This document shows positions 11,744 to 42,494 of a stretch of DNA of 64,000 nt, piece after piece. A program made the translations under genes and the position numbers. Source of the stretch: Motilimonas eburnea (GTDB lineage Bacteria > Pseudomonadota > Gammaproteobacteria > Enterobacterales > CBDFNC01); contig NZ_JAIMJB010000006.1 of assembly GCF_021295345.1 (NCBI RefSeq), positions 25,892 to 89,891 of the forward strand, read 5' to 3'. The notes beneath the pieces were generated by a model. It saw nothing but the letters and a program-made list of their open reading frames with translations. It ran no database searches and was not told the DNA's origin. Each line of letters opens with the position of its first letter. Position 1 is the stretch's first letter.

Positions 11744-11873
11744 GATTTTACGCTCTTGGATTTCAATGGGTTGATTTTACTAAAGAGAAAATCGGTATAT
11801 TTATTTGACTTCAAATCAAGGTGTTTAATAATAGCGCCTAGCCATTTCAATCGTTCAACGACAGGGACAGTTT

Positions 11874-12413
11874 ATGCTGCGAATAATACCCGCTGCTATC
11901 GCTTTGGCCATCATAGATGTGGCTTTATTAAGCGGTAGCTTCTACTTCCAAGGTGCCAGCTTAGCACAAGAGCTTACACTGCAATTTAATCAGACCATGG
12001 AGTCATCGCTGACGGCATTGGGACTGATTTTACAAAATACCTTGCTCGGTGGCGACGAAGTGATGGCTGAAACCATCATTAATGCCATGTTTGATGGCAG
12101 TATGTTGCAAAGTGTGACGCTCAAAGATCTGGACGGTTTAATTGCCTTTAACCGCATGTTTGGTGAGCCGACCGCCAATTATCCTCATTGGTTGGCACAA
12201 CTTTATCCCATTGGCGATCTCAGCCGAGATATGGAAATGACCGATGGCTGGAACATCTTAGGCGATTTATATGTGGCCAGTCACCCGCACCACTTTTATC
12301 AAGCGATGTGGAACGTACTCAGCGATCGCCTTGCGACCCAAGGGACAATAGCGCTCGGCGCTTGGCTATGCCAAGTGATCACTCTTATCTGGCTAGCAAC
12401 AAGGAAACGTTAA
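11874..12413 (+). CDS. LapD/MoxY N-terminal periplasmic domain protein; looks like a LapD truncated right after TM2 (no HAMP-GGDEF-EAL)
   Basis: 179 aa: TM1, a periplasmic domain, TM2, then stop. Closely parallels the LapD N-terminus (LSGSFYF...; ...YPHWLAQLYPIGDLSRDMEMTDGWNILGDLYVASHP...), with the GW of the LapG-binding hairpin conserved. Confidence 0.65.
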   Translation: MLRIIPAAIALAIIDVALLSGSFYFQGASLAQELTLQFNQTMESSLTALGLILQNTLLGGDEVMAETIINAMFDGSMLQSVTLKDLDGLIAFNRMFGEPTANYPHWLAQLYPIGDLSRDMEMTDGWNILGDLYVASHPHHFYQAMWNVLSDRLATQGTIALGAWLCQVITLIWLATRKR

Positions 12414-12415
12414 TC

Positions 12416-13478: not shown

Positions 13479-14177
13479 TTATAAAACGGTACGAGGCGAT
13501 TTTAATTTTTGGCTAGAAAAGCGCGATTTAACACTTTTCCATTCAGAGAGTTTATCTGCGTTACCCACTGGCTCCCCTTTTTTGGCCTTGCCCATTACCC
13601 AAAGGTGCTTGGCATTAAAGCTATAGACAGGGATCAGATCTTTACGCCTTGAAGCGGGTTTAATATCGTACTCTAAGTTATCTAAAATTAATGGGTTGGC
13701 TCTACGGCTAGGGTAATAAGCCAGCACCATATGGAATTGATCATATTTAACGGCCTTAACATACACCAAGCGCAGTTGGTCTTCGCCAACACCTAACTCC
13801 ATTAAGCTGTAATATTTAGCAATAGAATAATCTTCACAGTCACCGCCTTTGGCTCCGACAAATTCTAGCGGCGATGCCCAGTAATCATTTTGCCCCCACA
13901 ACTTTTTATCTTGGGCATAAACCAGCATATTAAAGAAATTATTAATCTCGGTTAGCTTTTGTTTATCGGACATAGATTTAGCATCACGCAAGGTGTTCAC
14001 TAACGCATCTATGCGTTTAATGGCTTTGTCACCATAGGTATCCGCCATTCGTTGTCTAATCGACTGCTGGCTTAAAAACGCTTCTAAATCCGAGGCTTGC
14101 ACAAGGCAAGGGAGTATTAAGCTGACACAAAGGGTCGCTGTGAATAGTAAATTAGTGAGAGGTTTTAACATGGCCAT
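13479..14177 (-). CDS. periplasmic bacterial transglutaminase-like cysteine proteinase (BTLCP), LapG-like
   Basis: Signal peptide plus a ...GGDCEDYSIAKYYSL... Cys motif with downstream His/Asp. 232 aa, matching the LapG/DUF920 size. Confidence 0.8.
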   Translation of the reverse strand: MAMLKPLTNLLFTATLCVSLILPCLVQASDLEAFLSQQSIRQRMADTYGDKAIKRIDALVNTLRDAKSMSDKQKLTEINNFFNMLVYAQDKKLWGQNDYWASPLEFVGAKGGDCEDYSIAKYYSLMELGVGEDQLRLVYVKAVKYDQFHMVLAYYPSRRANPLILDNLEYDIKPASRRKDLIPVYSFNAKHLWVMGKAKKGEPVGNADKLSEWKSVKSRFSSQKLKSPRTVL

Positions 14178-14313
14178 CCTAGCTTAACGGTACGATTAAT
14201 GAGCATTCATCCTTGCTTTACCCCAGCAGCACAGCCTTAACTGCAATCAGCTCAGCACAAAAATCATAGCGTAGAAAGCGTCAACTTTGAATCAAATGTT
14301 TGACCAATGGCAT

Positions 14314-14338
14314 GAAAAAAGCGCCATTTGGCGCTTTC
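14314..14338 (-). terminator. rho-independent terminator downstream of deoD (minus strand)
   Basis: On the minus strand: AAGCGCC-AAA-TGGCGCTT followed by TTTTTTCAT. Confidence 0.6.
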
Positions 14339-14358
14339 AAATTAATCAGATAATAAGC

Positions 14359-29272: not shown

Positions 29273-29360
29273 CACATAATCACATAATCACATAATCACA
29301 TAATCACATAATCACATAATCACATAATCACATAATCACATAATCACATAATCACATAAC
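29273..29360. repeat. 11 tandem copies of the octamer CACATAAT (last copy CACATAAC); microsatellite-like array
   Basis: Counted directly in the sequence. Flanked by near-identical 12-13-bp direct repeats (t/g)CTCGGCGAATAA at 29228-29240 and 29392-29404. Confidence 0.95.
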
Positions 29361-29426
29361 CAGACAATACACACCTTTGGCAGGCGTGCTTTCTCGGCGA
29401 ATAATATTAACGTGAATGGATTAGAT

Positions 29427-29454
29427 AAAAAAATGCCCAACGCTGGGGTTGGGC
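29427..29454 (-). terminator. rho-independent terminator (minus strand), copy 1 of a duplicated ~40-bp element
   Basis: Minus strand: GCCCAAC-CCCAGC-GTTGGGC followed by ATTTTTTT. Confidence 0.6.
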
Positions 29455-29512
29455 TAAGGGTATTGCAACTGACAAGCACCTTGCTTGATAACTTAATCCA
29501 CATATTTCAGGC

Positions 29513-29540
29513 AAAAAAATGCCCAACGCTGAGGTTGGGC
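29513..29540 (-). terminator. rho-independent terminator (minus strand), copy 2 of the duplicated element, ~100 bp downstream of the small ORF at 29644
   Basis: Minus strand: GCCCAAC-CTCAGC-GTTGGGC followed by ATTTTTTT. Copy 2 sits 86 bp from copy 1 and includes the flanking TAAGGG. Confidence 0.6.
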
Positions 29541-29549
29541 TAAGGGGAT

Positions 29550-29594
29550 GGTGACAAGCACAATAGAAACTTTGGTGACAAGCACAATAGAAAC
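29550..29594. repeat. tandem duplication of 21-bp GGTGACAAGCACAATAGAAAC (period 24 bp including a TTT spacer; a third partial copy GACAAGCACC at 29471)
   Basis: Seen directly in the sequence. Confidence 0.85.
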
Positions 29595-29643
29595 TGGAAA
29601 CAAACACAAATTAGAAAAAAACAAACACACAACAAGCTAATGA

Positions 29644-29907
29644 TTACATAGGGTTAATGACCTTCTCACCATTACTCCAAACGGTTTTAGCCTTGGCCTT
29701 AGTTGCAAAGGGTCCCTTGGCATTGCGCACCGCAGCAACCAATAGTAGCGTCATGCCCGCCAATAACTGCATACCCAGCAATAGAACTAAAAGCGGCAGT
29801 GCTAAGAAAAAGAAAGTCACTAAAAGAAGGCTTCTTAGCACGGCCTGAAAACCACTACGTGATTGATTCTGAAGTAATACTTGCATATAAGACGAATAAG
29901 CTTTCAT
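29644..29907 (-). CDS. small hypothetical membrane protein (87 aa)
   Basis: One or two hydrophobic helices and a basic C-terminus. Followed on its strand by the two terminators above. No recognised family. Confidence 0.35.
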   Translation of the reverse strand: MKAYSSYMQVLLQNQSRSGFQAVLRSLLLVTFFFLALPLLVLLLGMQLLAGMTLLLVAAVRNAKGPFATKAKAKTVWSNGEKVINPM

Positions 29908-30256: not shown

Positions 30257-30859
30257 ATGAGCATGTTTTATAGTCTTGCATTTGCCTTTCCAACTGCCCT
30301 TTTTACTGCTTTTGTACTGCTCATTTCTCTTTATTGGGCCGTGACTGTGATTGGTATGACGGAAATTGAGATGCTCGATGTTGATGACTCCTTGCTCGAT
30401 TTTTCCGGTTTAATGGCCAAGCTCAAACTCGATGGCGTGCCCGTCACCATTGCTTTGTCATTACTGTTTTATTTCTCTTGGGTTGTCAGCCTCATTATTC
30501 AAAATCAACTTAACCAAATGTTAGCGCCAGGGATCACCTACTATGGTTTTGGCCTGCTCGCGATGCTCGTCAGTTTATTACTCGGCGATCTCATCGCTAG
30601 CCAATGTGTTAAACCATTGCGCAAGATCTTTCGTGACCAAGAGGTACTCAGTAAACAAGACCTTGTCGGTAAAACGGCCATCGTCAGAACAACCAGCGTG
30701 ACCGATAGTTTTGGTGAAGCCAACTTTAATGATGGCGGCGCCGGAATCATTATAAAAATAAGAGCACATCAACCTAACCAACTTAATCGTGGCGACTCAG
30801 TGTTACTGGTGGAATATTTGCAAGAGCAAGATTCCTATATTGTCACCGCCCATTTGTAA
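30257..30859 (+). CDS. yqiJ: NfeD/YqiJ-like inner-membrane protein (membrane domain plus C-terminal OB-fold), partner of the flotillin
   Basis: 200 aa: multiple N-terminal TM helices then a soluble ~70-aa beta-rich C-terminus. Only 22 bp upstream of the SPFH gene, which is the YqiJ-YqiK arrangement. Confidence 0.65.
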   Translation: MSMFYSLAFAFPTALFTAFVLLISLYWAVTVIGMTEIEMLDVDDSLLDFSGLMAKLKLDGVPVTIALSLLFYFSWVVSLIIQNQLNQMLAPGITYYGFGLLAMLVSLLLGDLIASQCVKPLRKIFRDQEVLSKQDLVGKTAIVRTTSVTDSFGEANFNDGGAGIIIKIRAHQPNQLNRGDSVLLVEYLQEQDSYIVTAHL

Positions 30860-30880
30860 TCATCGTTTTAGGGAAAAACT

Positions 30881-33121
30881 ATGTTAGATATCACTACCAT
30901 ATTGATCATTGTCGGCATCGGCTTTGGCATCTTGTTGGGCTTTGCTTTATTGGTTAAAGCCTTTTATATCAAGGTACCTCAGGGCACGGCCTTGATCGTT
31001 AACACCACTCAAACCACACCTAAGGTTCGCTTCACGGGTGCCCTTGTTATCCCCGTGATCCACAAGATGGAAAAAATGCGTATATCCTTGATCACGCTAG
31101 AGATAGATCGCCGAGGTAAAGATGGCCTTATCTGTTTAGATAACATGCGCGCCGACATTACCGTTGCCTTCTATTTACGTGTAAACGAAACAGCTGAAGA
31201 CGTACTTAAAGTCGCCAAATCCATCGGTGCCGATCGCGCTTCCGATAAAGATGCAGTGAACGAGTTATTTAATGCCAAATTCTCTGAGGCATTAAAAACC
31301 GTGGGTAAAAAAATGGAGTTCTTACAACTGTTTGAAGAGCGAGCATTTTTCCGCGATGAGATTGTTAAAACCATAGGTAATGACTTAAACGGTTATGCCC
31401 TTGAAGACGTGGCGATCGATTACTTAGAGCAAACGCCAAAATCCGCTCTAGATCCTAACAACATCATGGACTCGGAAGGTATTCGTAAAATCACCGAAGT
31501 CACCTCCAAAGAGAACGTTAAAACCAACGAATACATTCGTGATGAAGAGCGTGCCATCAAAAAGAAAAACGTTGAAACCATTGAGCATTTACTCGTGCTT
31601 GATCGCCAAGAGAAAGAAGCACGAGCGAAACAAGAGCGTGAAGTGGCCAACATTAAAGCGCGCGAGAAGTCTGAACAGCTTAAGGTGGAAGAAGAAGAGC
31701 GCCTCAAGGCCGAATCAGCACGTATTCAAACCGAGCAAAATATTGCCATCCAAGAAGAAAACAAACTTCGTGAAATTGAAGTGTCGCAGCAAAACCGCGA
31801 ACGTGCGATTGGCGTTGAGCAAGAGCGGGTACAACGTGCCAAAGATCTTGAAGTGGTATCACGCGAACGTGAAGTCGCGCTGCAAACCATAGAGAAAGAG
31901 CGTGCCCTCGAAGTTGAGAAGAAAGAAATCGCCAACGTGGTACGTGAGCGTATCGCCGTTGAGAAAACCGTGGCTGAAGAAGAAGAGCGCATTAAAGAAG
32001 TACGTGAAGTCTCTGAAGCCGATCGTAACCGCCAAGTGGTGATCCTACAGGCCGAAGCACAAGCCCAAGAAGAGCTAGTTAAACAGGTTAAACAAGCCGA
32101 AGCCGATGAAATTAAAGCGCGCCACGAAGCGCAAAAAATCATCACTATGTCCCAAGCCGATCTCGAAGCTGCAGCGAAAAATGCCGACGCCATGAAGAAA
32201 ATGGCCGAAGGTATCGAAGCTGAAAACTCAGCACCGGGTCTGGCCGAAGCCCGCGTGAAAGAAGCCCTAGCCGATGCCCTAGAGAAAGAAGGCCTAGCCA
32301 AAGCTAAGGTAGAGCAAGAAACCTTAGTGGCTCGCGCCCAAGGTGATGAGCAAGTGGGTCTGGCTAAAGCGCGCGTACTCGAAGCGAACGCCAGCGCCAA
32401 AGAAAAAGATGGCCTTGCCGAAGCCAAAGTATTGGCTGAAAAACTCACAGCACAAGCTCAAGGTGATAAAGATATCGGTCTTACTGAGGCCATGGTATTG
32501 GCTGAGAAATTGAGCGCTCAAGCCAAAGGCGATAAAGACATTGGCTTGGCTAAAGCCTTGGCTTCTCGCGAGCTAGGTACTGCCGAAGCGGACGTGTTAG
32601 CGCTGAAACTGTCTGCCCAAGCTAAGGGTGATAAAGAGCAAGGCATGGCAGAAGCGGAAGTACTCAGTGCCAAATTCCACGCCGAAGCCCAAGGTCTGGT
32701 TGAGAAATTCAGCGCCATGGCAACCATGTCAAAAGAAGCTCGCGAGCACGAAGAGTTCCGTATGCAGCTTGAGAAAGACTTTGAGCAAGCCATGCAAGCC
32801 ATTAGCGTTAATAAGGACGTTGCTGTCCAGCAAGCGCAAGTGCTGTCTTCTGCCCTTGAAAAAGCCAACATCGACATCGTGGGAGGCCAAGGCGATTACT
32901 TCAACTCGTTAAGTAAAGCCCTGACCGTCGGTAAGTCCATCAATGGTCTGGTTGGTAAAACACCTTCGGTTGCGGCATTGCTGAATAAATTCATTGGCGG
33001 TGAAGAGTCAAAGCTATCGCCAGAGCAAACCGCAAAACAAAACTCATCTGATGTATTAGGTGGCTTATTAAACGAAAAAGCCAATGCAAACCAAGCAACT
33101 TCCGAGTCTAAAGACGCTTAA
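30881..33121 (+). CDS. yqiK: flotillin-like SPFH/band-7 protein (YqiK/FloT family), unusually long (746 aa) with an extended E/A/K-rich coiled-coil and imperfect ~21-aa repeats
   Basis: N-terminal TM, then SPFH core (...KVPQGTALIVNTTQ...ISLITLEIDRRGKDGLICLDNMRADITVAFYLRV...). Long EA-repeat region AQGD(K/E)(D/Q)(I/V)GL(A/T)(E/K)A(K/M)VLA(E)KLSAQ repeated about 5 times. Confidence 0.85.
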   Translation: MLDITTILIIVGIGFGILLGFALLVKAFYIKVPQGTALIVNTTQTTPKVRFTGALVIPVIHKMEKMRISLITLEIDRRGKDGLICLDNMRADITVAFYLRVNETAEDVLKVAKSIGADRASDKDAVNELFNAKFSEALKTVGKKMEFLQLFEERAFFRDEIVKTIGNDLNGYALEDVAIDYLEQTPKSALDPNNIMDSEGIRKITEVTSKENVKTNEYIRDEERAIKKKNVETIEHLLVLDRQEKEARAKQEREVANIKAREKSEQLKVEEEERLKAESARIQTEQNIAIQEENKLREIEVSQQNRERAIGVEQERVQRAKDLEVVSREREVALQTIEKERALEVEKKEIANVVRERIAVEKTVAEEEERIKEVREVSEADRNRQVVILQAEAQAQEELVKQVKQAEADEIKARHEAQKIITMSQADLEAAAKNADAMKKMAEGIEAENSAPGLAEARVKEALADALEKEGLAKAKVEQETLVARAQGDEQVGLAKARVLEANASAKEKDGLAEAKVLAEKLTAQAQGDKDIGLTEAMVLAEKLSAQAKGDKDIGLAKALASRELGTAEADVLALKLSAQAKGDKEQGMAEAEVLSAKFHAEAQGLVEKFSAMATMSKEAREHEEFRMQLEKDFEQAMQAISVNKDVAVQQAQVLSSALEKANIDIVGGQGDYFNSLSKALTVGKSINGLVGKTPSVAALLNKFIGGEESKLSPEQTAKQNSSDVLGGLLNEKANANQATSESKDA

Positions 33122-33139
33122 TGTTGCCATTGTTTATCT

Positions 33140-33205
33140 GCCGACTTGAGCCTTCAAGTCGGCACTAAAGTAAAGGCGCTAAAGTAAAAAGCACTAAAGT
33201 AAAGG
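33140..33205 (+). promoter_or_regulatory. 10-bp-stem hairpin (GCCGACTTGA-GCCT-TCAAGTCGGC, no U-tract) immediately followed by three tandem 14-15-bp direct repeats (GCACTAAAGTAAAGG / CGCTAAAGTAAAAA / GCACTAAAGTAAAGG) ending 4 bp before the giant ORF start codon
   Basis: Seen directly in the sequence. Sits in the 88-bp gap between the floT stop and the 1673-aa ORF start. Function (attenuator, processing site, operator or translational element) is inferred. Confidence 0.4.
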
Positions 33206-33209
33206 ATGC

Positions 33210-36200
33210 ATGATGTCGGATCACACTGTTGCAGAGAATGAACAAGATCTTGCCGCCGTTGCCGAAGGCGGCGCCTACCAAGTTATTCGCGCTCGCCTTA
33301 ACCAGCAAGGCAACGAGCTAGAGCAAAAAACCCAAAAACTCAATCAAGCCAGACTGAAAGAGTTTGGCCGCGAAGACATGCACGTACTTGGCCGAGTTCG
33401 CGTGCGCACTGAAAACAACTGCCAAGCCCGCGACATCGTCTGCGCGGGAGATTATTTACTGTTTGGCTACAATGTTTTTATCGGTCTCAAACAAGAAATT
33501 AAAATATCCGACGTCTTTGGTCTCTATAAGCTCAACCACACCGACGCCGGCTATGAAATGCACCATGAGCCGATCGCTGGAAGCTTTTTAGACAACCCCA
33601 GATTTGACCAAGACTTCACCGAGCTTTACACCTATTACAAAGAAGCTCGCCTACTTAGACTCACCATTCGCGATGGTAAGCTGCTGGCCAGTTTTCAGAT
33701 TGGCCTAAAAATGTCGGATGTCAGGGTGTTTCGCTGGAGCATCAGTAGCGATGGTAAAACCCTAGAATACATAGACAACCGCGGCGAGCGCGACCTCGTG
33801 CCGCCGGCCCAATACGATTTTGAATGGCAAGAATGTAGCCGTGAAAACGAAGTGGCGGGACGTTTCCCCCACATGAATATTTTAGACACCTTGTTTGTAG
33901 AAACCACCCAAGGTGATCTGACCGTCAAGATAGAAAACAATACCGACTCAGGCCTAGGCATCTACGCCGAAGACGTTGAAGACGACAACCAATCCCTTGA
34001 TGATGCGCGCTTTTTATATGCCGAAGTGGGCTCGCTGATCCTATTAAAGATACTGCCTTATCGCGAAGAAAAGTGGCGCTACTTGGTCTTTAACCGCAAC
34101 ACTGAAACCGTGGTGCGCATTGACCATATTGGCCACGCCTGTCGCCAGTTGCCTGAAAATCACGGCATCATCTTCCCCGGCGGTTATTACCTGCAAAATG
34201 GCGATTACAAAACCTTTGATGATGATATTACCGGCCTTGAATATCGCCAAACCATCAAGAGCCCTAATGGCGAAGACGTGTTGTATGTGTTTTATGAGCC
34301 AATCGAAGGCAAAGTCGGCCTTTATGCCTATAACCTGATCAACAAAAGCTTAGAAAACCCCTTGTTTGGTCACGGCTACGCCGCCCTAAATGATGGCCGC
34401 GTGGTGCTGTTTTATGCCGAAGGTGAGCCGACTCGCGTACACCCCATGCAAATTTGGCAAACGCCATTTTGCTCCGACGAGTACGCCAGCGCCCAGCCAA
34501 CTAAACAGAGCTTTTACGGCAAAATCGGCAACGCCGAACTCGTACGCGGCATCTCGGAATTATTTAGCACAGTTAAAGCCATCAACAACCAAACCGTTTC
34601 CACTAAGCTCTACAGCGAGTTGATTAAAAACGTCAACCGCATGTTTGATAGCTATCATTGGATGGCGGCACAACAAGTCGATGGTATCGAAAGCCTGCTG
34701 CGTCAAATTGCGGCCACGGCAGAGCTCGTGCTTGATGAGTTTGAAAAAGTTGAAACCATTCGCCAGCAAGCGCGCCAAGCCTTGCAACAAGCGCAGCAGC
34801 AACAAAGCAAGATATTATCTGAGATCACCCCTGATTCGTGGCAGACACCGGAAAAGTTTGTTGGCGGCCTTGATGCCATACGCAAACAAAAAGGCCACTT
34901 GCTGACCATCAAAACCATGCGTTACATGGAAGCCGAGCCATTAGCGCAAATGGGGCAAAAGCTGGAGCAAGCCGAGGCTAGCCTGAGCCAAAAAACCGTG
35001 GAGTTTTTGGCCAAAGAATCTTCATTAGCGCCCTATAACGATAAGCTAGCCAGCTTAAATACCGAGCTTGAAAAAGTGGTGTCGGTGGCCGAACTAGAGC
35101 CCGTTGCCGAGCAGCTTGAGCAAATGGCGGCCGGACTGGATTTACTGTCCGAGCTGATGGCAACCTTAAAGGTCAATGATGCCACGGTACGCACCCGCAT
35201 CATCGATACCATTTCGGAGATTTATGGCCGCTTAAACCAAACCAAGGCCAATGCGAAACATAAAAAGCAAAGCCTTGGCAGCGCCGAATCCCTAGCGCAG
35301 TTTTCTGCGCAATTTAAGCTGTTCAGCCAAAGTATTACCAATGCCTTGGGTCTGGCCAATACACCCGAAAAAGCCGATGAACAACTATCGCGCCTGTTGG
35401 TGCAGCTTGAAGAGTTAGAGAGTCAATTTAGCGAGCAGGAAGAATTTCTCACGGATATTCTGACCAAACGTGAAGAAGTCATAGAAAGCTTTGAAAGCCA
35501 TCGCCAACGTATGGTCGAAGCGCGCCAACGCAAGGCTAGCACGTTAAAAGACGCGGCCGAGCGGATCTTAGCCAGCATTGCCCGCCGGGTGCAAAAGTTC
35601 ACAGAACTAGAGCAGCTCAATACCTTTTTCGCTTCCGATGCCCTCGCCCTTAAAATTTACGATCTAGTGGCGCAGCTGCGCGAGATTGACGATTCGGTCA
35701 AAGCCGATGACATCGAAGCCAAATTTAAAAACAGCAAAGACCAAGCCATTCGCTCGCTGCGTGATAAAAGCGAAATCTTTGAAGACGGCGGCAACGTTAT
35801 CAAACTGGGGCCACGCCATAAGTTTACCGTGAACACCCAAGAGCTGGATCTCACCTTACTGCCTAAAGGTGATGAGCTAGTGTTCCACTTAACCGGTACC
35901 GACTACTTTGATGTTGCCAGTGACGCCGAGCTAAATCGTCTGCAAGATTACTGGACCCAAGAAATTGAATCAGAAACCAAGCAGGTTTATCGCGCCGAGT
36001 ACTTGGTTAAACAAATACTGGATAGCGCCGAACGAAATGAAGCAGGTTTAAGCACAGAGCAGCTAAGATTAGCACAAACGGATCCAGCCCAATTAAACCA
36101 ATTGGTCCGCGATTTTGCCGCGCCGCGCTACAAAGAAGGCTACGAACGCGGTATTCATGATCACGATGCCAGCTTGATTTTAAGTCAGCTGTTACCGGCT

Positions 36201-38231
36201 CTAAGTCAAGCCGATGTGCTCAGGTTTCCGCCATTAAGCCGTGGATTTAGCGCCATTTTTTGGGCTAACTGCCAACAAGATACGCCGATGCAAACTTGGC
36301 CAGAGCGGGCCAAATCGGCATTGCGTATGGAAGCCATCTTTAACTCAAGTGACGCGAAGCATTTACTTGAGCAAGAAATTAAACAAGCGCAGCAAGCCTT
36401 TGCCAAAGCCAATGAACTGCCCTTGGATAACACCGCCATTGATCTTAGCGCCCGCTATTTAGTGCAAGAGCTAGCCAAGGAGCCAGTGGTATTTGCCACC
36501 AGTAAATACGCCGACCATCTGGCGCAAGAGCTCAGACGCGCCATGGACACAGAGTCTTGGAATTCCTACCAGCATAGTTTAGAAAAACTCAAAGGTAAGA
36601 TAGGTCAGCGCTGGGCCCTAACTCAAGCTTGGCTGCAAGCCTTAGTCAGTAATAAAGCCATGGCAAAATGGCAAGCCTACATTCCAGAAGCCGTGGCCTT
36701 GATTAACGGTGAAGGCCGCCTTAGCCGCCGCGTCCATGAAGTCGAGCTAGAGTTTCAGGTAGAGGGCTTAATGGGCCAGCATAGCCGGATAAAAGATCGT
36801 AAGCTTGATCTTTCTTTAGATGACTTTTTGCAGCGCCTTGAACATCACCAACAAGCCGTATTACCCGGCTACAACGAGTTCTTAAGTGTTCGTAATCAGG
36901 TCACTCAAAAGCAAAAAACACAGCTGCGCTTAAGCGAGTTTAAGCCTAGGCCGCTGTCGTCTTTTGTACGAAATAAGTTAATCAATGATGCGTATTTGCC
37001 CATCATAGGTGATAACTTGGCCAAACAAATGGGTACAGTGGGCGAAAGTAAGCGAACCGATTTGATGGGCTTGCTCATGCTTATCTCCCCACCGGGCTAT
37101 GGTAAAACCACCTTGATGGAATACATCGCCAGCCGGTTGGGCTTGATTTTTATGAAAATCAACTGTCCCTCTATCGGTCATGTGGTGGACTCGCTCGATC
37201 CCGCGCAGGCGCCCAACGCCACCGCCAAAGCCGAGTTAATTAAACTCAACCTAGGCTTAGAAATGGGTAACAACGTGATGCTGTATCTCGATGATATTCA
37301 GCACACTAACCCTGAATTTTTACAAAAATTCATTTCTTTGTGTGATGGCACGAGGCGCATCGAAGGTATCTGGCAAGGCCAGCCAAAAACCTATGATCTG
37401 CGCGGTAAAAAGTTCTGCGTGATCATGGCGGGTAACCCTTACACCGAATCCGGTGAAGCATTTCAAATCCCCGACATGCTGGCCAACCGCGCCGACATAT
37501 ACAACCTAGGTGATATTTTAGGTGGCATGGATGAGGCCTTTGCCTTGAGTTACCTTGAAAATGGCATGACCTCCAACCCCGTACTGGCGCCACTGGCGAC
37601 GCGTTCACAGCAAGATTTCTATAAGCTGGTTGAGCTGGCCAAAGGCAATCAAGTGGATAGCAGCGAATTAGAGCACGGCTACAGCGGCGCCGAGCTGAAT
37701 GAAATCACTGGCGTGTTGGCCAAGTTACTGCAAATTCAACAAGTGGTACTGGCCGTCAACCAAAGCTATATTGCCTCGGCGGCCCAAGCCGATAAGTATC
37801 GCACCGAGCCGCCCTTTAAGCTGCAAGGCAGTTATCGCAACATGAACAAGATGGCCGAAAAAGTCTCTTCGGTCATGAATGATGACGAGCTGATGCAACT
37901 CATTGAAGATCATTACCTAGGTGAAGCGCAAATGTTGGCCGCGAGCGCCGAGGAAAACTTACTCAAATTGGCCGAGCTGCGCGGTAACATGACACCAGAG
38001 CAAGCTCAGCGCTGGCAACAAATCAAAGATGATTATGTTAAGCATCAGACATTGGGTGGCGACAGTGATGTTACCCTCAAGGCCGTGTCGCAATTGTTAG
38101 ATATGAATGCCAACCTGAACAGTATTAACGATACCTTAAGCCAAACCCGTTATCGCTTTAAACGTTCCACCACAGAAACGGGTAAAACTCAGGTCAGCAT
38201 CAGCAAAAAGCCAAAGCATGTGAAGGAATAA
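33210..38231 (+). CDS. giant (1673-aa) multidomain cytoplasmic protein: N-terminal ~430-aa beta-rich domain, ~800 aa of Q/E/L/A-rich coiled-coil/helical repeats, C-terminal MoxR/AAA_5-like P-loop ATPase module plus a ~300-aa helical tail
   Basis: Continuous ORF. Walker A LISPPGYGKTTLMEY at aa ~1290-1300 (nt ~37086-37112). Walker B-like VMLYLDDIQH (DD rather than DE) at aa ~1356-1363. Sensor-1-like CVIMAGNP. No TM or signal peptide. Family not recognised. Confidence 0.8.
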   Translation: MMSDHTVAENEQDLAAVAEGGAYQVIRARLNQQGNELEQKTQKLNQARLKEFGREDMHVLGRVRVRTENNCQARDIVCAGDYLLFGYNVFIGLKQEIKISDVFGLYKLNHTDAGYEMHHEPIAGSFLDNPRFDQDFTELYTYYKEARLLRLTIRDGKLLASFQIGLKMSDVRVFRWSISSDGKTLEYIDNRGERDLVPPAQYDFEWQECSRENEVAGRFPHMNILDTLFVETTQGDLTVKIENNTDSGLGIYAEDVEDDNQSLDDARFLYAEVGSLILLKILPYREEKWRYLVFNRNTETVVRIDHIGHACRQLPENHGIIFPGGYYLQNGDYKTFDDDITGLEYRQTIKSPNGEDVLYVFYEPIEGKVGLYAYNLINKSLENPLFGHGYAALNDGRVVLFYAEGEPTRVHPMQIWQTPFCSDEYASAQPTKQSFYGKIGNAELVRGISELFSTVKAINNQTVSTKLYSELIKNVNRMFDSYHWMAAQQVDGIESLLRQIAATAELVLDEFEKVETIRQQARQALQQAQQQQSKILSEITPDSWQTPEKFVGGLDAIRKQKGHLLTIKTMRYMEAEPLAQMGQKLEQAEASLSQKTVEFLAKESSLAPYNDKLASLNTELEKVVSVAELEPVAEQLEQMAAGLDLLSELMATLKVNDATVRTRIIDTISEIYGRLNQTKANAKHKKQSLGSAESLAQFSAQFKLFSQSITNALGLANTPEKADEQLSRLLVQLEELESQFSEQEEFLTDILTKREEVIESFESHRQRMVEARQRKASTLKDAAERILASIARRVQKFTELEQLNTFFASDALALKIYDLVAQLREIDDSVKADDIEAKFKNSKDQAIRSLRDKSEIFEDGGNVIKLGPRHKFTVNTQELDLTLLPKGDELVFHLTGTDYFDVASDAELNRLQDYWTQEIESETKQVYRAEYLVKQILDSAERNEAGLSTEQLRLAQTDPAQLNQLVRDFAAPRYKEGYERGIHDHDASLILSQLLPALSQADVLRFPPLSRGFSAIFWANCQQDTPMQTWPERAKSALRMEAIFNSSDAKHLLEQEIKQAQQAFAKANELPLDNTAIDLSARYLVQELAKEPVVFATSKYADHLAQELRRAMDTESWNSYQHSLEKLKGKIGQRWALTQAWLQALVSNKAMAKWQAYIPEAVALINGEGRLSRRVHEVELEFQVEGLMGQHSRIKDRKLDLSLDDFLQRLEHHQQAVLPGYNEFLSVRNQVTQKQKTQLRLSEFKPRPLSSFVRNKLINDAYLPIIGDNLAKQMGTVGESKRTDLMGLLMLISPPGYGKTTLMEYIASRLGLIFMKINCPSIGHVVDSLDPAQAPNATAKAELIKLNLGLEMGNNVMLYLDDIQHTNPEFLQKFISLCDGTRRIEGIWQGQPKTYDLRGKKFCVIMAGNPYTESGEAFQIPDMLANRADIYNLGDILGGMDEAFALSYLENGMTSNPVLAPLATRSQQDFYKLVELAKGNQVDSSELEHGYSGAELNEITGVLAKLLQIQQVVLAVNQSYIASAAQADKYRTEPPFKLQGSYRNMNKMAEKVSSVMNDDELMQLIEDHYLGEAQMLAASAEENLLKLAELRGNMTPEQAQRWQQIKDDYVKHQTLGGDSDVTLKAVSQLLDMNANLNSINDTLSQTRYRFKRSTTETGKTQVSISKKPKHVKE

Positions 38232-38234
38232 ATC

Positions 38235-38921
38235 ATGGACCAACAACATATAGAGCAAGTATTGCTGGCTAGTCTTGAAGACAACAAGCTCGATCGGGAT
38301 GAAAAACATGCCCTTGCCGAGTTAACTCAAAGCTTGCAAACCCAACCCGATAACATCAGCTTTATTCGCAATAAAGCCTTTGCTTTGCTATTGGCCAGCC
38401 ATGACTTTAATGAGGAGCAGTTTCGTGCCATTAAATGGCTGGAAAACGTGGTCAAAACCTTAGATAAAAACAGCCAGCAACCTAGCATCGTCGCCGATGC
38501 GTGCTTTAGCCCGGGCACAGATTGTTTAAATCGGATCGAGAGTTTGTGCCAACAAGCTAGGCGCAGTATCGATATCTGTGTGTTTACGATTTCGTGTAAC
38601 GAAATCACCGATGCGATATTGCAAGCCCACCAGCGCGGCATCACGGTGCGCATTATTTCTGATAATGATAAGCGTAATGACAAGGGCTCTGACGTCTATC
38701 GCTTAAGCGACGCAGGCATTCCTGTGGTGGTGGATAAGACCGACCATCATATGCACCACAAGTTTGCCCTGTTTGACCAAAAAGTGTTGCTCAACGGCAG
38801 CTTTAACTGGACCCGTAGCGCGTCTAAATACAATCAAGAGAACATCGCGACCACCGACAATCCTAAATTGGTTGCCGCCTTTAGCCGAGAGTTTGACCGC
38901 CTTTGGCATAAATTAGGTTAG
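38235..38921 (+). CDS. Nuc-like phospholipase-D-family nuclease (single HKD motif) with a ~90-aa N-terminal helical extension
   Basis: HxK(x4)D(x6)GSxN motif HHKFALFDQKVLLNGSFNWTRSA at nt ~38752-38820. Start is 4 bp after the giant ORF stop, with an AGGA RBS overlapping that stop (translational coupling). Confidence 0.8.
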   Translation: MDQQHIEQVLLASLEDNKLDRDEKHALAELTQSLQTQPDNISFIRNKAFALLLASHDFNEEQFRAIKWLENVVKTLDKNSQQPSIVADACFSPGTDCLNRIESLCQQARRSIDICVFTISCNEITDAILQAHQRGITVRIISDNDKRNDKGSDVYRLSDAGIPVVVDKTDHHMHHKFALFDQKVLLNGSFNWTRSASKYNQENIATTDNPKLVAAFSREFDRLWHKLG

Positions 38922-39111
38922 TTCCCGTCTAGGCCAGTTGCTCTGCACTGGCCTAATCAAACCTGCCCCACAAACATAAACAATAATTAAGTATGCCCTG
39001 TCGCGATAAGTTGCTATGTTAACCCGCTTACTCAAGCGTACATTCAGTTGGACTTCACTGAGTTCAAACTTTAATCGTTAGCCACTTTACTTTTAGCGCA
39101 CGCATTGCAGA

Positions 39112-41955
39112 ATGAGCAAGGTGCTTGCTTGGCAAAAAGCTGTTTCAGGGAAATTTATGCTAGACCGGAGTTGTCGAAATCTCATCCGCTATTATCGAGC
39201 TTGTTACCAAGCCGACAATCGAGATTTAACTCTATTTAATGTTTATCACCGTGATTGTGAGTACACTCGCTTTATGCAAGGGCGAGAAACCCTGATCAGC
39301 AATGATATTCCTCGCCTGCCCTTAGCAAAAAGCTATGGCGAAACCCTGTATCAAGCGCAAAACACCTACCAAAGAGAAAAGACCTTACTTTATTGCAGCT
39401 TTTTTTTGCTCGGTAAGTTACCTTCGAGTTACCCCGGAAAACGCAAGGTGTGCGCACCGCTACTCTATTATCATGCTCAAGTCAGCATAGATAACAATGA
39501 GTACTATCTCAGCATAGATAAAAGTAAGCCCATCGTTAACTGGCCCTTATTGCGCTGGGCGTTAGCGGAAGGCAAACAGCCAAATGAGCCGGAGTTTATC
39601 ACTCAGGGCATCACCGAACTTGATGTGGCTAAACTGAGCCACTGGCTGAGTTCAATGAGCGATAAGATAAATTGCCTTGAATTATATCATTACCCCAATT
39701 TGACCAGTGAAGATGACATTGAGGCTAAACAGCATCAGGAAGGCGAATTTAACCTCGTCTCGGCTTCTGCGATCACCTTAGTCAAATACTCACTGGCTTC
39801 GCGGGGGATCTTACACGATCTCAAGGCGATGGCGGTCTCTTCCTACCTGCCACAATCGGTCAATATGCTACTCACGGGAGCACAACAAGCCACATCATAC
39901 CCTCGCCAATCATCAACCAGCGCACCCTCAACAGGGCGAGAATACCTCAGTGGTTTAACCGCAGCCGATCCCGATAATATTCCCGCATTACTCAGCCATG
40001 CCCAACGCCAAGCCTTGATCAATGCAGCACGTTTTCCTGTTAGCCAAATTGTTGGGCCACCGGGCACGGGCAAATCCTATACCATTGCCTGTTTAGCCCT
40101 AGAGCGCTATCTACAAGGTGAGTCGGTATTGGTGGTGGGACAAAACAATGAAAGCGTAAACATTGTTGGCGACAAAATAGAGGCCATGCTGGGCCAACAA
40201 GATTTTGTCGTACGAGTGGGTGATGCCAGTTATCACAAAAAATTAAAGCGCTATTTAAAAGACCTGCTCAGTGGCTACCTGACCCAACAAGAAAACCGAG
40301 CTAAGCAACATGGCAGTGAAAGCCTACTCAAGCAAAAACAAAAGATGCAGCGCCTCGAGAAGCAATTTGCCAAACGCTGTCAAAAAGCCATTCGTTACGG
40401 CATGCACACCTGGAAAGCGCAGCAACATGACTCGCTATGGAACCGCTTTAATGCATGGCGTGCAAAACGAGCCACCCTCAAACAAGATATTTTGTTTGAC
40501 GTATTTGCCGAGATAACCAAACAACAGCGTATTCGACACCTGGCCCTAGGCCATTATATTAGCCAAAGCCGTCGGCGACGCTTGCACCATGTGCTCAATC
40601 ACCACCGCGCGCAATTGAATCGATTTCGCGAAGCAATCAACGCCACCAATTCAAGTGAGCAAGCCAGCCGATTTGACACCATTGATTACCCCATTCTACT
40701 CAAGGCGATGCCGGTGTGGCTGGGCACCTTAGGTGACTTGCATCGAAGCTTGCCATTAAAAGCGGAATTGTTTGATTTGGTCATCATCGACGAAGCCAGC
40801 CAATGTGATATTGCCAGTACCTTGCCGGCCGTGTTTAGAGCTAAGCATGTCGTCATCGTAGGCGATGATAAGCAACTTAGGTTTATTTCGTTTTTATCTA
40901 AGGACAAGCAAGGGAAATTGCAATCGCGCTATGATTTATCAAACCAAACGGGTGAGTTCGATTATCGTAATGTCAGTGTGTTAGACCTAGCTAACCGTCA
41001 TATCAAGCAGCAACAGGCGATTGTTGTATTAGATGAACACTTTCGCAGCAAAAGTGCATTGATTGATTTTAGTAACCGTAAGTTTTACCACCAGCAGCTC
41101 AAAGTGATGCGCCATAAACCGGGCAATAACACGGACTATCCTTTATCGATAGTGCCTTGCCAAGGACAATATAAAAATGGCAAAAACCAACAAGAAGCGC
41201 TAGATGTCATGGCGTTTTTGCAGACCAAGCTACATCAACAGAGCGCCATGGGTTTACACTCCAGTATCGGCATTCTATCGCCTTTTCGTGAACAGACCAT
41301 GCTGTTGCAAAAGCTATTACCTCGGTATGCCACGCCCGACCAAATCAATCATCATCGCATAAAAATTGAAACCCCTTATGGTTTCCAAGGCGAAGAGCGC
41401 GACATCATACTACTGAGTATGTGTGTGGATGAACAAAGCAGCGGCCATCAATTTCGATATATCAATCGCCCTGATGTGTTTAACGTTGCGGTGACGCGCG
41501 CACGCGACGAACAATATGTTTTTTTATCAAGTCGGCCGCACCGTTTACCTTCACAATCGCTGTTATTTGAATACATCCACAGTATCGAACGGAATCATCA
41601 ATACGCGTTAGATGAAAACAACGATTTTGATGCCTTTCAGGCCGAAGTATCCCGATTGTTGACCTTAAATGGCATTAACACATGGAAAAACTACCCCATA
41701 GCAGGGGCAGAGCTTGATTTAATGTGCGAGTATGGAGATAAAACCTTAGCCATCGACTTGATTGGCTACCCAGGCGAATCTCAGGACTACTACCACCTCA
41801 GCCGCTACCAAATTTTTCAACGTGCTGGCCTAACCTTATATCCCCTGACCTATACTCGCTGGGTTAACCAAAAACACCGAGTATTAAAACAAATAATCCA
41901 ACTATTGGGGGCCAGCGAAACGGGCTTGACCAGTCAGGAAAACAGCATTTACTGA
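39112..41955 (+). CDS. Upf1/DNA2-like superfamily-1 helicase (DUF4011-like N-region, AAA_11/AAA_12 core) with a C-terminal DUF559/PD-(D/E)xK-like nuclease-fold domain
   Basis: Motif I GPPGTGKS (nt ~40054). Motif II VIIDEASQ (nt ~40780). Motif III VVIVGDDKQL. Motif V ILSPFREQ. Motif VI VAVTRAR. The C-terminal ~130 aa (...ELDLMCEYGDKTLAIDLIGYPGE...RYQIFQRAGLTLYPLTYTRW) resembles DUF559. Confidence 0.85.
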   Translation: MSKVLAWQKAVSGKFMLDRSCRNLIRYYRACYQADNRDLTLFNVYHRDCEYTRFMQGRETLISNDIPRLPLAKSYGETLYQAQNTYQREKTLLYCSFFLLGKLPSSYPGKRKVCAPLLYYHAQVSIDNNEYYLSIDKSKPIVNWPLLRWALAEGKQPNEPEFITQGITELDVAKLSHWLSSMSDKINCLELYHYPNLTSEDDIEAKQHQEGEFNLVSASAITLVKYSLASRGILHDLKAMAVSSYLPQSVNMLLTGAQQATSYPRQSSTSAPSTGREYLSGLTAADPDNIPALLSHAQRQALINAARFPVSQIVGPPGTGKSYTIACLALERYLQGESVLVVGQNNESVNIVGDKIEAMLGQQDFVVRVGDASYHKKLKRYLKDLLSGYLTQQENRAKQHGSESLLKQKQKMQRLEKQFAKRCQKAIRYGMHTWKAQQHDSLWNRFNAWRAKRATLKQDILFDVFAEITKQQRIRHLALGHYISQSRRRRLHHVLNHHRAQLNRFREAINATNSSEQASRFDTIDYPILLKAMPVWLGTLGDLHRSLPLKAELFDLVIIDEASQCDIASTLPAVFRAKHVVIVGDDKQLRFISFLSKDKQGKLQSRYDLSNQTGEFDYRNVSVLDLANRHIKQQQAIVVLDEHFRSKSALIDFSNRKFYHQQLKVMRHKPGNNTDYPLSIVPCQGQYKNGKNQQEALDVMAFLQTKLHQQSAMGLHSSIGILSPFREQTMLLQKLLPRYATPDQINHHRIKIETPYGFQGEERDIILLSMCVDEQSSGHQFRYINRPDVFNVAVTRARDEQYVFLSSRPHRLPSQSLLFEYIHSIERNHQYALDENNDFDAFQAEVSRLLTLNGINTWKNYPIAGAELDLMCEYGDKTLAIDLIGYPGESQDYYHLSRYQIFQRAGLTLYPLTYTRWVNQKHRVLKQIIQLLGASETGLTSQENSIY

Positions 41956-42494
41956 TCGCCTTGTAATAAATCGGGTGATAAAGACACCGAGCCTGACTCC
42001 GTGCTCACTAGCACTTCCCCATCTTGAACGGACACTTGCACATCCATGGTTTTTTGAAACAACTGGGCTAGCGCTTGCGTTTGCTCATAGGCAAGGTTGT
42101 ATACCGTCAGCTTAGGCAATTTAGCGAGTTGCTTTTGGTTTTGTTGCCACCAAATATCTGCACTGCCGCCGCCATAACTGTAAAGCACGACTTGTTTAGA
42201 TCTGGCGCAAGCTTTTTTCAAACGCTTCTCTTCTGGTGTGCCCAGTTCCACCCATAATTCAATGTCATCCGTTAAAGATTTAGCCCATAACTCAGGCTCA
42301 TCATCGGCACATAGGCCTTTAGTAAACGTGAGGTTATCCCTTGCCTGCAGGGCAAAGGCTAACAATCTAACCATCAAACGCTGGGCATTTTCCGAAGGAT
42401 GCTGAGCCAAGGTTAAATTGTAATCTTGGTATAAATGCGTGTCCATGTTGGCAAGTTGTAACCTTGCCTTGATAATCGTTGCGCCTATTGCCAT
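41949..42494 (-). CDS. yaeQ: YaeQ-family protein
   Basis: 181 aa, colinear with E. coli YaeQ (...QHPSE..R.M.R.LAF...PELW.KSL.D.I.LW.E.G.P...Q.K..V.Y.Y....W...). Convergent with the helicase gene, overlapping it by 7 bp. Confidence 0.85.
   Translation of the reverse strand: MAIGATIIKARLQLANMDTHLYQDYNLTLAQHPSENAQRLMVRLLAFALQARDNLTFTKGLCADDEPELWAKSLTDDIELWVELGTPEEKRLKKACARSKQVVLYSYGGGSADIWWQQNQKQLAKLPKLTVYNLAYEQTQALAQLFQKTMDVQVSVQDGEVLVSTESGSVSLSPDLLQGDQ

Follow-up and report, generated by a model that had tools for sequence, protein, structure and literature searches.

The question raised by the stretch of Motilimonas eburnea DNA analyzed here (64,000 nucleotides of contig NZ_JAIMJB010000006.1, hereafter the window or 64-kb window) is whether five co-directional genes in it, designated g1–g5, form a multi-gene system that has not been described before. 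A preliminary description, made from the sequence alone, had recognized a YqiJ/NfeD-like protein (g1), a long flotillin (g2), a giant AAA+ protein (g3), a phospholipase D (PLD; g4), and an Upf1-like helicase (g5), and had stated that no described system possessed this combination. All five open reading frames (ORFs) were recovered exactly as called, on the plus strand (Table 1). For four of the five genes, however, the statement of novelty was wrong, as their combination has been described both by Ravi et al. (2024) and as the bacABCDEF cluster of Pseudomonas aeruginosa. The locus is a PspA-less, helicase-bearing version of this known and widespread operon. What is new here is the assignment of its PLD to the Zucchini type and a recurrent link between the operon and the helicase. 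Taken as a whole, the locus is probably this known operon in the service of flotillin-scaffolded envelope-stress maintenance, which is induced by phages in P. aeruginosa, and no dedicated mobile defense island.

Table 1. Positions of the five genes, their spacers, and the flanking features in the 64-kb window.
Feature	Position	Strand	Description
g1	30257–30859	+	200-aa ORF
g2	30881–33121	+	746-aa ORF
g2–g3 spacer	33122–33209	+	11-bp stem-loop, then three direct-repeat copies of 14–15 nt
g3	33210–38231	+	1673-aa ORF
g4	38235–38921	+	228-aa ORF
g4–g5 spacer	38922–39156	+	190 nt to first ATG, ~235 nt to likely start
g5	39112–41955	+	947-aa ORF; 932 aa with likely start
Tandem array CACATAAT	29273–29359		10.9 copies, perfect; intergenic, downstream of lactonase gene
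Two near-identical palindromes AAAAAATGCCCAACGCTG(G/A)GGTTGGGCTAAGGG	29425–29460, 29511–29545		Score as minus-strand terminators
24-nt direct repeat	29549–29609		2–2.4 copies
Small ORF	29644–29907	-	87 aa, no Pfam match; divergent from operon, between repeats and g1
yaeQ	41949–42494	-	Pfam YaeQ, E = 7.6e-73; convergent with g5, 7-nt overlap at 3' end

By comparative genomics, Ravi et al. (2024) described in mSystems an operon in which a CesT/Tir-PspA pair is followed by a YqiJ/YuaF protein, a band-7/flotillin protein, and a beta-propeller/coiled-coil AAA+ ATPase. In some Proteobacteria, an HKD PLD joins this operon, abbreviated operons without PspA are widespread, and a role in sub-membrane dynamics was proposed (PMC11237479). 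g1–g4 belong to the same four families and stand in the same order. The window contains the YqiJ/YuaF-type protein, the flotillin with its transmembrane helix, SPFH domain, and coiled coil, the giant ATPase with the same architecture of propeller, coiled coil, and AAA+ module, and the HKD PLD 3 nt downstream of the latter. The CesT/Tir (DUF2170)-PspA pair of the 5' end is missing. This pair is what defines the full form, and because no PspA or DUF2170 homolog was found in the 64-kb window, positions 30257–38921 are assigned to the abbreviated operons of Ravi et al. (2024). Thus, the window differs from the operon as described in that it lacks CesT-PspA yet possesses the PLD, and in the Upf1-like helicase that follows.

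In P. aeruginosa, the bacABCDEF genes ('biofilm-associated cluster'; PA3732–PA3727 or PA14_16140–16200), of which bacA encodes a DUF2170 protein and bacB PspA, were shown by reverse transcription PCR to be on one transcript. When bacA was mutated, all Bac partners rose 6- to 13-fold, and bac mutants showed defects in biofilm formation, rhamnolipids, and virulence (PMC10948618). Moreover, PA3728–PA3732 were among the 17 genes that were up-regulated in all phage-infected P. aeruginosa samples (PMC12041424). In the sister species P. paraeruginosa (locus L043), the gene order is CesT(DUF2170)-PspA-YqiJ-like-flotillin-like-giant-PLD, and its giant is 59% identical to g3. Judged from synteny in this species, g1–g4 correspond to bacC–bacF. 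Different from the bac cluster, the window possesses neither bacA nor bacB, and no sigma-54-like promoter (-24/-12 element) was found upstream of g1. The P. aeruginosa-type loci, in turn, have no helicase, unlike Motilimonas.

Neither g1 nor g2 had a match of its own in Pfam or NCBIfam, even at E = 10, and the profiles of both families matched nothing in PDB. The preliminary identifications of the two proteins were nevertheless correct, as comparisons by hhalign with YqiJ and YqiK of Escherichia coli revealed. The profile of the 22-member g1 family aligned with YqiJ over 148 columns (probability 94%, E = 1.4e-7), YqiJ_N was matched by 3 of the 22 members, and the g1 counterpart of Hymenobacter is annotated as 'DUF1449 family protein'. 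By these comparisons, g1 is a YqiJ/NfeD-like (DUF1449-type) inner-membrane protein with predicted N-terminal transmembrane helices and a C-terminal beta-rich soluble domain. The profile of the 22-member g2 family aligned with YqiK over 400 columns that included the transmembrane, SPFH, and coiled-coil regions (99.9%, E = 5.7e-35). Band_7 was matched by 3 of its 22 members (best E = 2e-8), and the Streptomyces counterpart is annotated as 'flotillin family protein'. g2 is similarly predicted to be a long flotillin with an N-terminal transmembrane helix, an SPFH/band-7 domain, an Ala/Glu-rich coiled coil, and a flotillin-type C-terminus.

The region of residues ~440–600 of g2 consists of tandem Ala/Glu-rich repeats of ~27–28 aa, such as AEAKVLAEKLTAQAQGDKDIGL, and an internal 27-nt DNA repeat lies at 32243–32304. 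Because of these repeats, g2 is longer than most of its homologs (746 aa versus ~620–700 aa). The repeats are also reflected in the GC excess of g2, which is in the first codon positions, and they create a spurious antisense ORF of 240 aa (31726–32448). NfeD-flotillin pairs are also encoded by yqiJK of E. coli and yuaFGI of Bacillus subtilis; g1 and g2 are homologous to YqiJ and YqiK, and the gene order and short spacing of E. coli yqiJK are those of g1–g2. Different from the window, however, no giant ATPase, PLD, or helicase is found downstream of yqiK in E. coli K-12, and the YqiK-type flotillin of E. coli is shorter and without the additional Ala/Glu-rich repeats.

g3 matched Pfam DUF3686 at residues 36–483 (E = 4e-196), DUF7902, and one AAA/AAA_5 module at residues 1289–1412, which confirmed that the giant is an AAA+ protein. 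Its Walker A motif is GPPGYGKTT (~1294–1301) and its Walker B motif is LYLDD (1358–1362). An AlphaFold model of residues 1–710 (mean predicted local distance difference test, pLDDT, 80.5) comprised an N-terminal helix (7–52), a beta-rich domain (~58–417), and helical bundles (423–709) that included DUF7902. In this model, the beta-rich domain at residues 58–417, which is within DUF3686, is predicted to be a beta-propeller. g3 is thus a cytoplasmic giant of propeller, helical bundles, single AAA+ module, and helical C-terminus, similar to BacE/PA3728. More than 5,491 g3 homologs were identified, whose identities to g3 were ~60% (55–62%) across gammaproteobacterial orders, and full-length giants with identities of 40–49% were found in Streptomyces, Deinococcus, and Hymenobacter. 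Among 1.84 billion representatives, the N-terminal 710 residues alone matched 290 clusters (50% identity, E <= 1e-30).

The presence of an AAA+ ATPase next to PspA is reminiscent of the ESCRT-III/Vps4 system, in which a polymer of the PspA/Vipp1 superfamily is paired with an AAA+ remodeler. Most operon loci likewise pair PspA with the AAA+ ATPase, and the same analogy was drawn by Ravi et al. (2024; PMC11237479). The AAA+ module of g3, however, is not recognizably Vps4-like or of the classical clade: its weak matches are of the AAA_5/MoxR type, and no MIT domain was found in it. Moreover, the window is without PspA, unlike the ESCRT-III/Vps4-like pairing.

Gene neighborhoods were compared across genomes by fetching 80 species-representative loci. 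The six-frame ORFs of each locus were scored against the window proteins as well as against PspA, DUF2170, rhomboid, and Zn-ribbon proteins from two annotated loci. Linkage was counted over 79 species-level loci, and the denominators given below are the loci with enough flanking sequence. YqiJ-like and flotillin-like genes were directly upstream of the giant gene in 70 of 71 loci, and CesT(DUF2170) and PspA were further upstream in 49 of 68. Downstream of the giant gene, a rhomboid gene was found in 30 of 70 loci, a PLD gene in 24 of 70, a Zn-ribbon gene in 20 of 70, and a helicase gene in 6 of 66. The preliminary description had taken the five genes as one candidate system; across genomes, however, the giant gene kept its adjacency to YqiJ and flotillin genes regardless of PLD or helicase, which is one of the outcomes that the description itself had named as speaking against its reading. 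The five genes do form a linked set within Motilimonas, and their order is kept in M. cestriensis. Nor is the PLD merely a stand-alone gene. Its linkage to the giant gene is conserved, and it often overlaps its upstream neighbor at the start and stop codons, with gaps of -4 to 15 nt behind the giant gene or a giant-rhomboid pair. The PLD occurred without CesT-PspA in only 2 of the 24 PLD-positive loci, those of Motilimonas and Corallincola, and CesT-PspA is also absent from the same locus of M. cestriensis.

The triad of YqiJ, flotillin, and giant was found far outside the Gammaproteobacteria. In Streptomyces, the locus is annotated as a hypothetical protein, a 'flotillin family protein', and a 'DNA repair ATPase', and Deinococcus has the same triad. 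In Hymenobacter, the annotations are 'molecular chaperone Tir', 'PspA/IM30', 'DUF1449', a 722-aa protein, and 'DNA repair ATPase'. The rhomboid is a family of intramembrane proteases of ~185 aa whose genes stand directly after the giant gene, often with a 4-nt overlap (for instance in L003, L005, and L007). The Zn-ribbon protein is of ~180 aa. Motilimonas has neither gene.

Source records name the giant family 'DNA repair ATPase' or 'DNA repair protein', and the text of Pfam DUF3686 reads 'ATPase involved in DNA repair'. If these names were right, DNA repair or another chromosome function would be the common task of the giant, the PLD, the helicase, YaeQ, and, in Pseudomonas, RecJ. The clustering of nucleic-acid enzymes (PLD, helicase, YaeQ, and RecJ) at the 3' end of the operon speaks for such a function. 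Our searches, however, found no literature on DUF3686 or PF12458 and no experimental basis for the name. Moreover, the partners that hardly vary are the two membrane proteins (70/71) and PspA/CesT (49/68) rather than DNA enzymes, and the adjacency of RecJ and YaeQ is limited to the Pseudomonas group and Motilimonas, where that of RecJ looks like plain synteny. We therefore regard a function in DNA repair as very unlikely.

The PLD of the operon was examined in comparison with solved and profiled relatives. g4 matched PLDc_2 (E = 7.5e-31), and its HxK(x)4D(x)6GSxN motif is intact (HHKFALFD...GSFN), so that the call of a single-HKD PLD was upheld. Its best solved relatives in a phmmer search were 9lkx (E = 3.8e-28, 102 bits) and 4ggj (E = 1.1e-26, 97 bits), both deposited as 'mitochondrial cardiolipin hydrolase', versus 49 bits (E = 9e-12) for Nuc (1byr) and 40 bits (E = 4e-9) for NucT. 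Matches to the PADLOC models DrmC, MkoC, DpdK, and MkoB were weak and at the domain level (26–35 bits). On these comparisons, g4 is a single-HKD PLD of the Zucchini/MitoPLD (PLD6) type, which is BacF/PA3727-like by synteny, and belongs to neither the Nuc/NucT type nor the Mokosh type. Its N-terminal extension of ~95 aa is conserved, helical, and polar by eye, and no transmembrane segment is evident in the sequence. The g4 family yielded 2,266 matches of ~228 aa that were ~50% identical over the full length. Some of its metagenomic members (P0271, P0296, P0299, and P0340) already carry the annotation 'mitochondrial cardiolipin hydrolase'.

g5 is assigned by its motifs and domain matches to the SF1B helicases of the Upf1/Sen1/IGHMBP2-like type, with a length of 932–947 aa, and only a minority of the operons possess it as an accessory gene. 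It matched AAA_11 (E = 1.8e-23) and AAA_12 (E = 2.9e-22). Its superfamily 1 (SF1) motifs are all present (GPPGTGKS, DEAS, GFQGEERD, and VAVTRAR) and invariant across 128 family members, and its matches in PDB were Sen1, Upf1, IGHMBP2, and DNA2. In addition, the family possesses a conserved N-terminal domain of its own (~16–290). The earlier reading of g5 as an Upf1-like helicase with DUF559 was right as regards the helicase and, probably, a restriction-endonuclease-like tail; DUF559 proper (PF04480) was not matched in the Pfam scan. At the C-terminus, REase_MTES_1575, which is Vsr/DUF559-related, scored 22.8 bits in g5, below the cut-off of 38.2. Of 24 family members, 8 matched this model (best E = 4.9e-6), and the sequence of the C-terminal region (AG..D...AIDLIGYPG) is conserved. 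The true start of g5 is probably the ATG at 39157 (MLDRSCRN...), because this N-terminus is conserved in M. cestriensis, where a stop codon closes off the upstream ATG, and the NCBI model is also of 932 aa.

Helicases of the g5 family (~900 aa, 35–39% identical over the full length) are common in marine Gammaproteobacteria and mostly stand alone; their contexts in Thalassotalea and Pseudoalteromonas are unrelated to the operon. In the neighborhood comparison, all six helicase-bearing loci were also PLD-positive (Fisher p = 0.0015, with related genomes counted as independent), and 18 of the 24 PLD-positive loci had no helicase. The layout giant-PLD-helicase was found in Motilimonas and, with a gap of 297 nt, in P. 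alcaligenes. The layout giant-rhomboid-PLD-helicase was found in five Pseudomonas or Ectopseudomonas species, where PLD and helicase genes overlap by -4, -1, or -28 nt. In the metagenomic locus L115, the order is flotillin-giant-helicase-DUF2339-PLD-286 aa, followed by an AdoMet decarboxylase gene. Other arrangements were those of L108, where a polyamine-type cluster (DUF4178, DUF350, and a Spermine_synth-domain protein) lies between the giant gene and the helicase gene; of Reinekea (L065), where a distant helicase homolog (~30% identity) is divergent from CesT-PspA-YqiJ-flotillin-giant; of Microbulbifer (L086) and of L100, where the helicase gene is ~1 kb upstream of a yjf-type operon; and of L087, with a TelA-helicase pair. 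The yjf-type operon near the helicase encodes DUF2170, PspA, Ion_trans_2, DUF2491, DUF350, DUF1190, and GSP_synth. In L115, the DUF2339 protein is a membrane protein of 1229 aa (9117–12806), the 286-aa protein after the PLD (13492–14352) has no Pfam match, and overlaps of 4 nt occur around the PLD gene; the two proteins may be further accessory members.

The helicases linked to the operon form a Motilimonas clade and a Pseudomonas clade, whose identities to each other and to stand-alone members are alike 37–41%; these identities would fit one ancient link as well as repeated recruitment. A recurrent link of the helicase with flotillin-giant or PspA/polyamine operons was not found in the literature searched, and the words 'helicase' and 'rhomboid' are absent from the main text and one supplementary text file of Ravi et al. 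(2024).

According to the mechanism that we propose, g1 and g2 would form a membrane-anchored SPFH/flotillin scaffold at the cytoplasmic face of the inner membrane. The giant would dock on this scaffold, or on PspA polymers encoded elsewhere, via its propeller and long helical arm, and its AAA+ module would serve to build, reshape, or remove the scaffold when the envelope is under stress. The coupled Zucchini/MitoPLD-like PLD would be the enzymatic effector that is brought to the platform, and the Upf1-like helicase with its restriction-endonuclease-like tail would be a facultative partner of the PLD. Given that the helicase occurs downstream of the giant only with the PLD, the latter probably has nucleic acid and not lipid as its substrate, presumably single-stranded RNA or DNA close to the membrane.

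Alternatively, the PLD could be a cardiolipin or phospholipid hydrolase through which the curvature or composition of the membrane is altered at the sites of flotillin/PspA. The helicase would then be a bystander under its own promoter. Hydrolysis of cardiolipin or phospholipid was the function first proposed for MitoPLD, and the names under which the closest solved relatives of g4 were deposited agree with it. The other partners in the operon, flotillin, YqiJ, PspA, rhomboid, and DUF2339, are all membrane or membrane-remodeling proteins. Moreover, a hairpin-bearing gap of ~235 nt precedes g5, PLD and helicase genes are 10 kb apart in L172, and the helicase is mostly a stand-alone gene elsewhere. 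However, most of the field now takes Zucchini and MitoPLD for single-strand nucleases, and g4 has no evident membrane anchor. After the giant, the helicase was found only in PLD-positive operons, its gene overlaps the PLD stop codon in five Pseudomonas-group loci, and at least five different arrangements place it near this operon or further PspA operons, which makes chance adjacency unlikely. Pure lipid remodeling by the PLD with a bystander helicase is thus in our view quite unlikely.

The pairing of a PLD with an Upf1-like helicase has also been the reason to think of phage defense. Mokosh is an experimentally shown anti-phage defense, of which type I consists of MkoA and MkoB and type II of MkoC (Cury et al., 2022; Millman et al., 2022). 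Similar to Mokosh, g4 and g5 possess a PLD domain and an Upf1-like SF1 helicase domain, respectively. The preliminary description had taken them as the gene content of type I Mokosh in reversed order. The domain content and the reversed order were correctly seen, but the coverage of the PADLOC profiles spoke against membership. g5 matched MkoC (E = 9e-47) and MkoA (E = 2e-33), also PDC-S37 and Hhe, over the helicase core only, and it matched NCBIfam ProA as well. Residues 298–799 of g5 aligned with MkoA positions 620–1068 of 1112 (PDLC03920) or 1026–1560 of 1607 (PDLC03921), which leaves the N-terminal ~600 positions of MkoA uncovered. g4 (228 aa) aligned with positions 227–440 of the 610 of MkoB (E = 1e-6) at 26 bits, versus the 102 bits of its PLD6 match. 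The matches of g4 and g5 cover only 35–45% of the MkoA/MkoB profiles. On the MkoC profile of 1136 positions, g5 (552–839) and g4 (103–203) aligned with consecutive parts, 669–981 and 999–1111. In type II Mokosh, however, the helicase (N-terminal) and the PLD (C-terminal) are fused in one polypeptide, whereas two genes are found here, PLD then helicase. Compared with type I, their order is reversed, and they are adjacent with a gap of 190–235 nt inside a conserved membrane operon. As only the helicase and PLD cores were matched, Mokosh membership was ruled out, and no PADLOC model was matched by g1–g3.

A defense function of another kind would be that the membrane module senses phage adsorption, injection, or lysis proteins and activates the PLD and the helicase as a Mokosh-like or piRNA-like pair of effectors, which then degrade phage or host nucleic acid. 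Besides the helicase cores shared with MkoC, MkoA, Hhe, and PDC-S37, the match to ProA, and the domain content shared with Mokosh and with PLD6 and MOV10L1, the variable 3' end of the operon (rhomboid, PLD, Zn-ribbon, helicase, and DUF2339), which resembles effector swapping, speaks for this function. So does the induction of the orthologous P. aeruginosa operon by two virulent phages (PMC12041424), but induction by phages is expected of any general envelope-stress regulon of the phage shock protein (Psp) type. In addition, the reported phenotypes of bac mutants are in biofilm formation, rhamnolipid production, and virulence, not in phage sensitivity (PMC10948618). Unlike typical defense genes, the core of the operon is vertically conserved across orders and phyla, with no phage matches and few plasmid matches, and its context is one of housekeeping genes rather than a defense island. 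The PLD and the helicase are both missing from most operons, and the coverage of the defense profiles is as limited as described above. We know of no defense phenotype for the flotillin-giant-PLD operon. A function in anti-phage defense is therefore considered unlikely.

The genomic surroundings also bear on the earlier idea that the locus is an inserted accessory module, for which the indications were weak. g3 is indeed more GC-rich than its neighbors, as had been estimated by eye, but the excess is small: its GC content is 0.490 versus 0.464 for the window, and GC at third codon positions (GC3) is 0.55 in g3 and g4 versus 0.44–0.49 in the neighboring genes. The flanking genes are housekeeping genes (histidine kinase, lactonase, YaeQ, M50 peptidase, and GGDEF-EAL), and no mobility genes were found in the flanks of the operon. 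The giant family was found in none of 50,697 phage records and in 13 of 72,556 plasmid records, mostly of megaplasmids or chromids. The convergence of the operon on yaeQ was confirmed by Pfam, and yaeQ adjoins the operon in Pseudomonas, too: YaeQ homologs were encoded downstream of the giant/PLD genes in 16 Pseudomonas-group loci (L035, L037, L039, L041–L047, L049, L053, L055, L063, L081, and L173). A recently inserted island was rejected, given that the GC3 shift is small and limited to g3 and g4, the locus is conserved in the genus, yaeQ is a conserved neighbor, and flanking mobility genes are absent.

YaeQ is a family that we take to have the PD-(D/E)xK fold. In some Pseudomonas-group loci, yaeQ comes directly after the PLD gene on the same strand, with gaps of ~38–117 nt, and is followed by the gene for RecJ. 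YaeQ homologs were absent from the stand-alone helicase loci. yaeQ may be an extra nuclease-fold partner of the operon or a case of plain synteny.

Several points weigh against the mechanism that we favor, flotillin-scaffolded envelope-stress maintenance with a PLD acting on nucleic acid. To our knowledge, no component of the operon family has a demonstrated biochemical activity, and we inferred all of the mechanistic steps. For the MitoPLD-type enzymes, both lipase and nuclease activities have been ascribed. The AlphaFold2 model of residues 1131–1673 of g3, which include the AAA+ module, was poor (pLDDT 64). A Foldseek search with it returned weak matches of the MoxR/NorQ/CbbQ/Mdn1 type (E >= 2e-3, TM-scores of 0.15–0.39), and among PDB sequences, neither g3 as a single sequence nor a C-terminal profile found an AAA+ match; all that came back was coiled-coil noise. 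A Vps4-like role of g3 on PspA or flotillin would thus be an analogy only, and no PspA, CesT, or DUF2170 homolog was found in the window itself. As for the helicase, ~30 of the ~40 full-length metagenomic helicase loci had none of the system genes in the available flanks, and the six linked loci among the 79 probably go back to only 2–3 independent origins. PLD and helicase genes are ~10 kb apart in L172, a close relative of Motilimonas with a giant of 77% identity. In Motilimonas, the PLD and helicase genes are separated by ~235 nt with a hairpin, because of which g5 may be transcribed independently of the operon. Between the PLD and helicase genes of L172 (383–9085) are unrelated genes, among them those for an ABC-F ATPase, NYN, ASCH, a Zn-ribbon-bearing helicase of the UvrD type, and a 5'-nucleotidase, and the g5-type helicase stays near GGDEF, PilZ, and YaeQ.

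With these points in mind, the proposed partnership of g4 and g5 can be set beside that of animal Zucchini/MitoPLD (PLD6) and Armitage/MOV10L1, which act in the biogenesis of PIWI-interacting RNA (piRNA) at the mitochondrial surface. Similar to the animal pair, the partner of the PLD, which is itself closest to PLD6/Zucchini, is an Upf1-like SF1 helicase, and the context is that of a membrane platform, in which the animal pair works and g4–g5 are encoded. Different from Zucchini/MitoPLD, g4 is without an evident N-terminal membrane anchor and has a different N-terminal domain, and different from Armitage/MOV10L1, g5 has a restriction-endonuclease-like tail. We know of no small-RNA pathway of the piRNA kind in bacteria, and the relation suggested by these similarities is at the domain level only. 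At its boldest, our reading would be that PLD and helicase are a nucleic-acid-degrading arm, licensed by the giant on flotillin/PspA platforms upon envelope damage, such as that by phages. It would amount to RNA/DNA surveillance or immunity that membrane damage sets off. This arm would be a bacterial counterpart, and possibly a relative, of Zucchini-Armitage/MOV10L1, and the helicase an unnoticed part of a PspA/CesT/polyamine envelope-stress network. We consider this extension speculative and rather unlikely.

The operon is widespread, slowly evolving, and strongly conserved, with full-length copies from Gammaproteobacteria to Actinomycetota, Deinococcota, and Bacteroidota, and is linked to PspA. 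Taken together, the Zucchini-type PLD and the recurrent helicase suggest that part of a phage-shock-type envelope response may act on nucleic acids. If true, a nucleic-acid arm would be unexpected for the field of Psp and flotillin proteins and would bear on the proposed bacterial ancestry of piRNA-biogenesis enzymes; the closeness of the g4 family to PLD6/Zucchini also bears on the proposed Mokosh origin of PLD6. If the link with the helicase comes from synteny alone, nothing would set the locus apart from other members of this known operon, whose function is uncharacterized.

The spacers between the genes were 21, 88, 3, and 190 nt in order; the distances of 88 and 190 nt given before were right, and those of 22 and 4 nt were each off by one. 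At the junction of the g3 stop and the g4 start, which reads GAAGGAATAAATCATG, the Shine-Dalgarno sequence of g4 is inside g3. Because of this arrangement, g3 and g4 are probably translationally coupled, in agreement with what had been proposed for the PLD and giant genes. Both the hairpin and the triple direct repeat that had been reported for the g2–g3 spacer were seen. The hairpin has a minimum free energy of -25.4 kcal/mol (z = -2.74 versus shuffled sequences). The repeat is GGCACTAAAGTAAA, in 3.1 copies, the last of which holds the Shine-Dalgarno sequence of g3. In M. cestriensis, a different hairpin occupies the same position and is followed by a U-run, and the triple repeat is not conserved there. 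A conserved attenuator or stabilizer between the flotillin and giant genes is plausible from these sequences. The element is possibly an attenuator or an mRNA-stability element that sets the ratio of flotillin to ATPase.

The hairpin of the g4–g5 spacer has the stem GGCCAGU...ACUGGCC (z = -2.1) and is without a T-run, and no sigma-70-like or sigma-54-like match was found in this spacer. In M. cestriensis, a hairpin is at the same position, and the distance to the first in-frame start is 147–211 nt. Upstream of g1, the region rich in repeats and terminators that had been described was confirmed. It contains the CACATAAT array, the two palindromes, and the 24-nt repeat, of which the palindromes and the 24-nt repeat look like repetitive extragenic palindromic (REP) elements. 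Both palindromes are located downstream of the small ORF, and a gene for a protein of 83 aa is found in M. cestriensis where this ORF stands.

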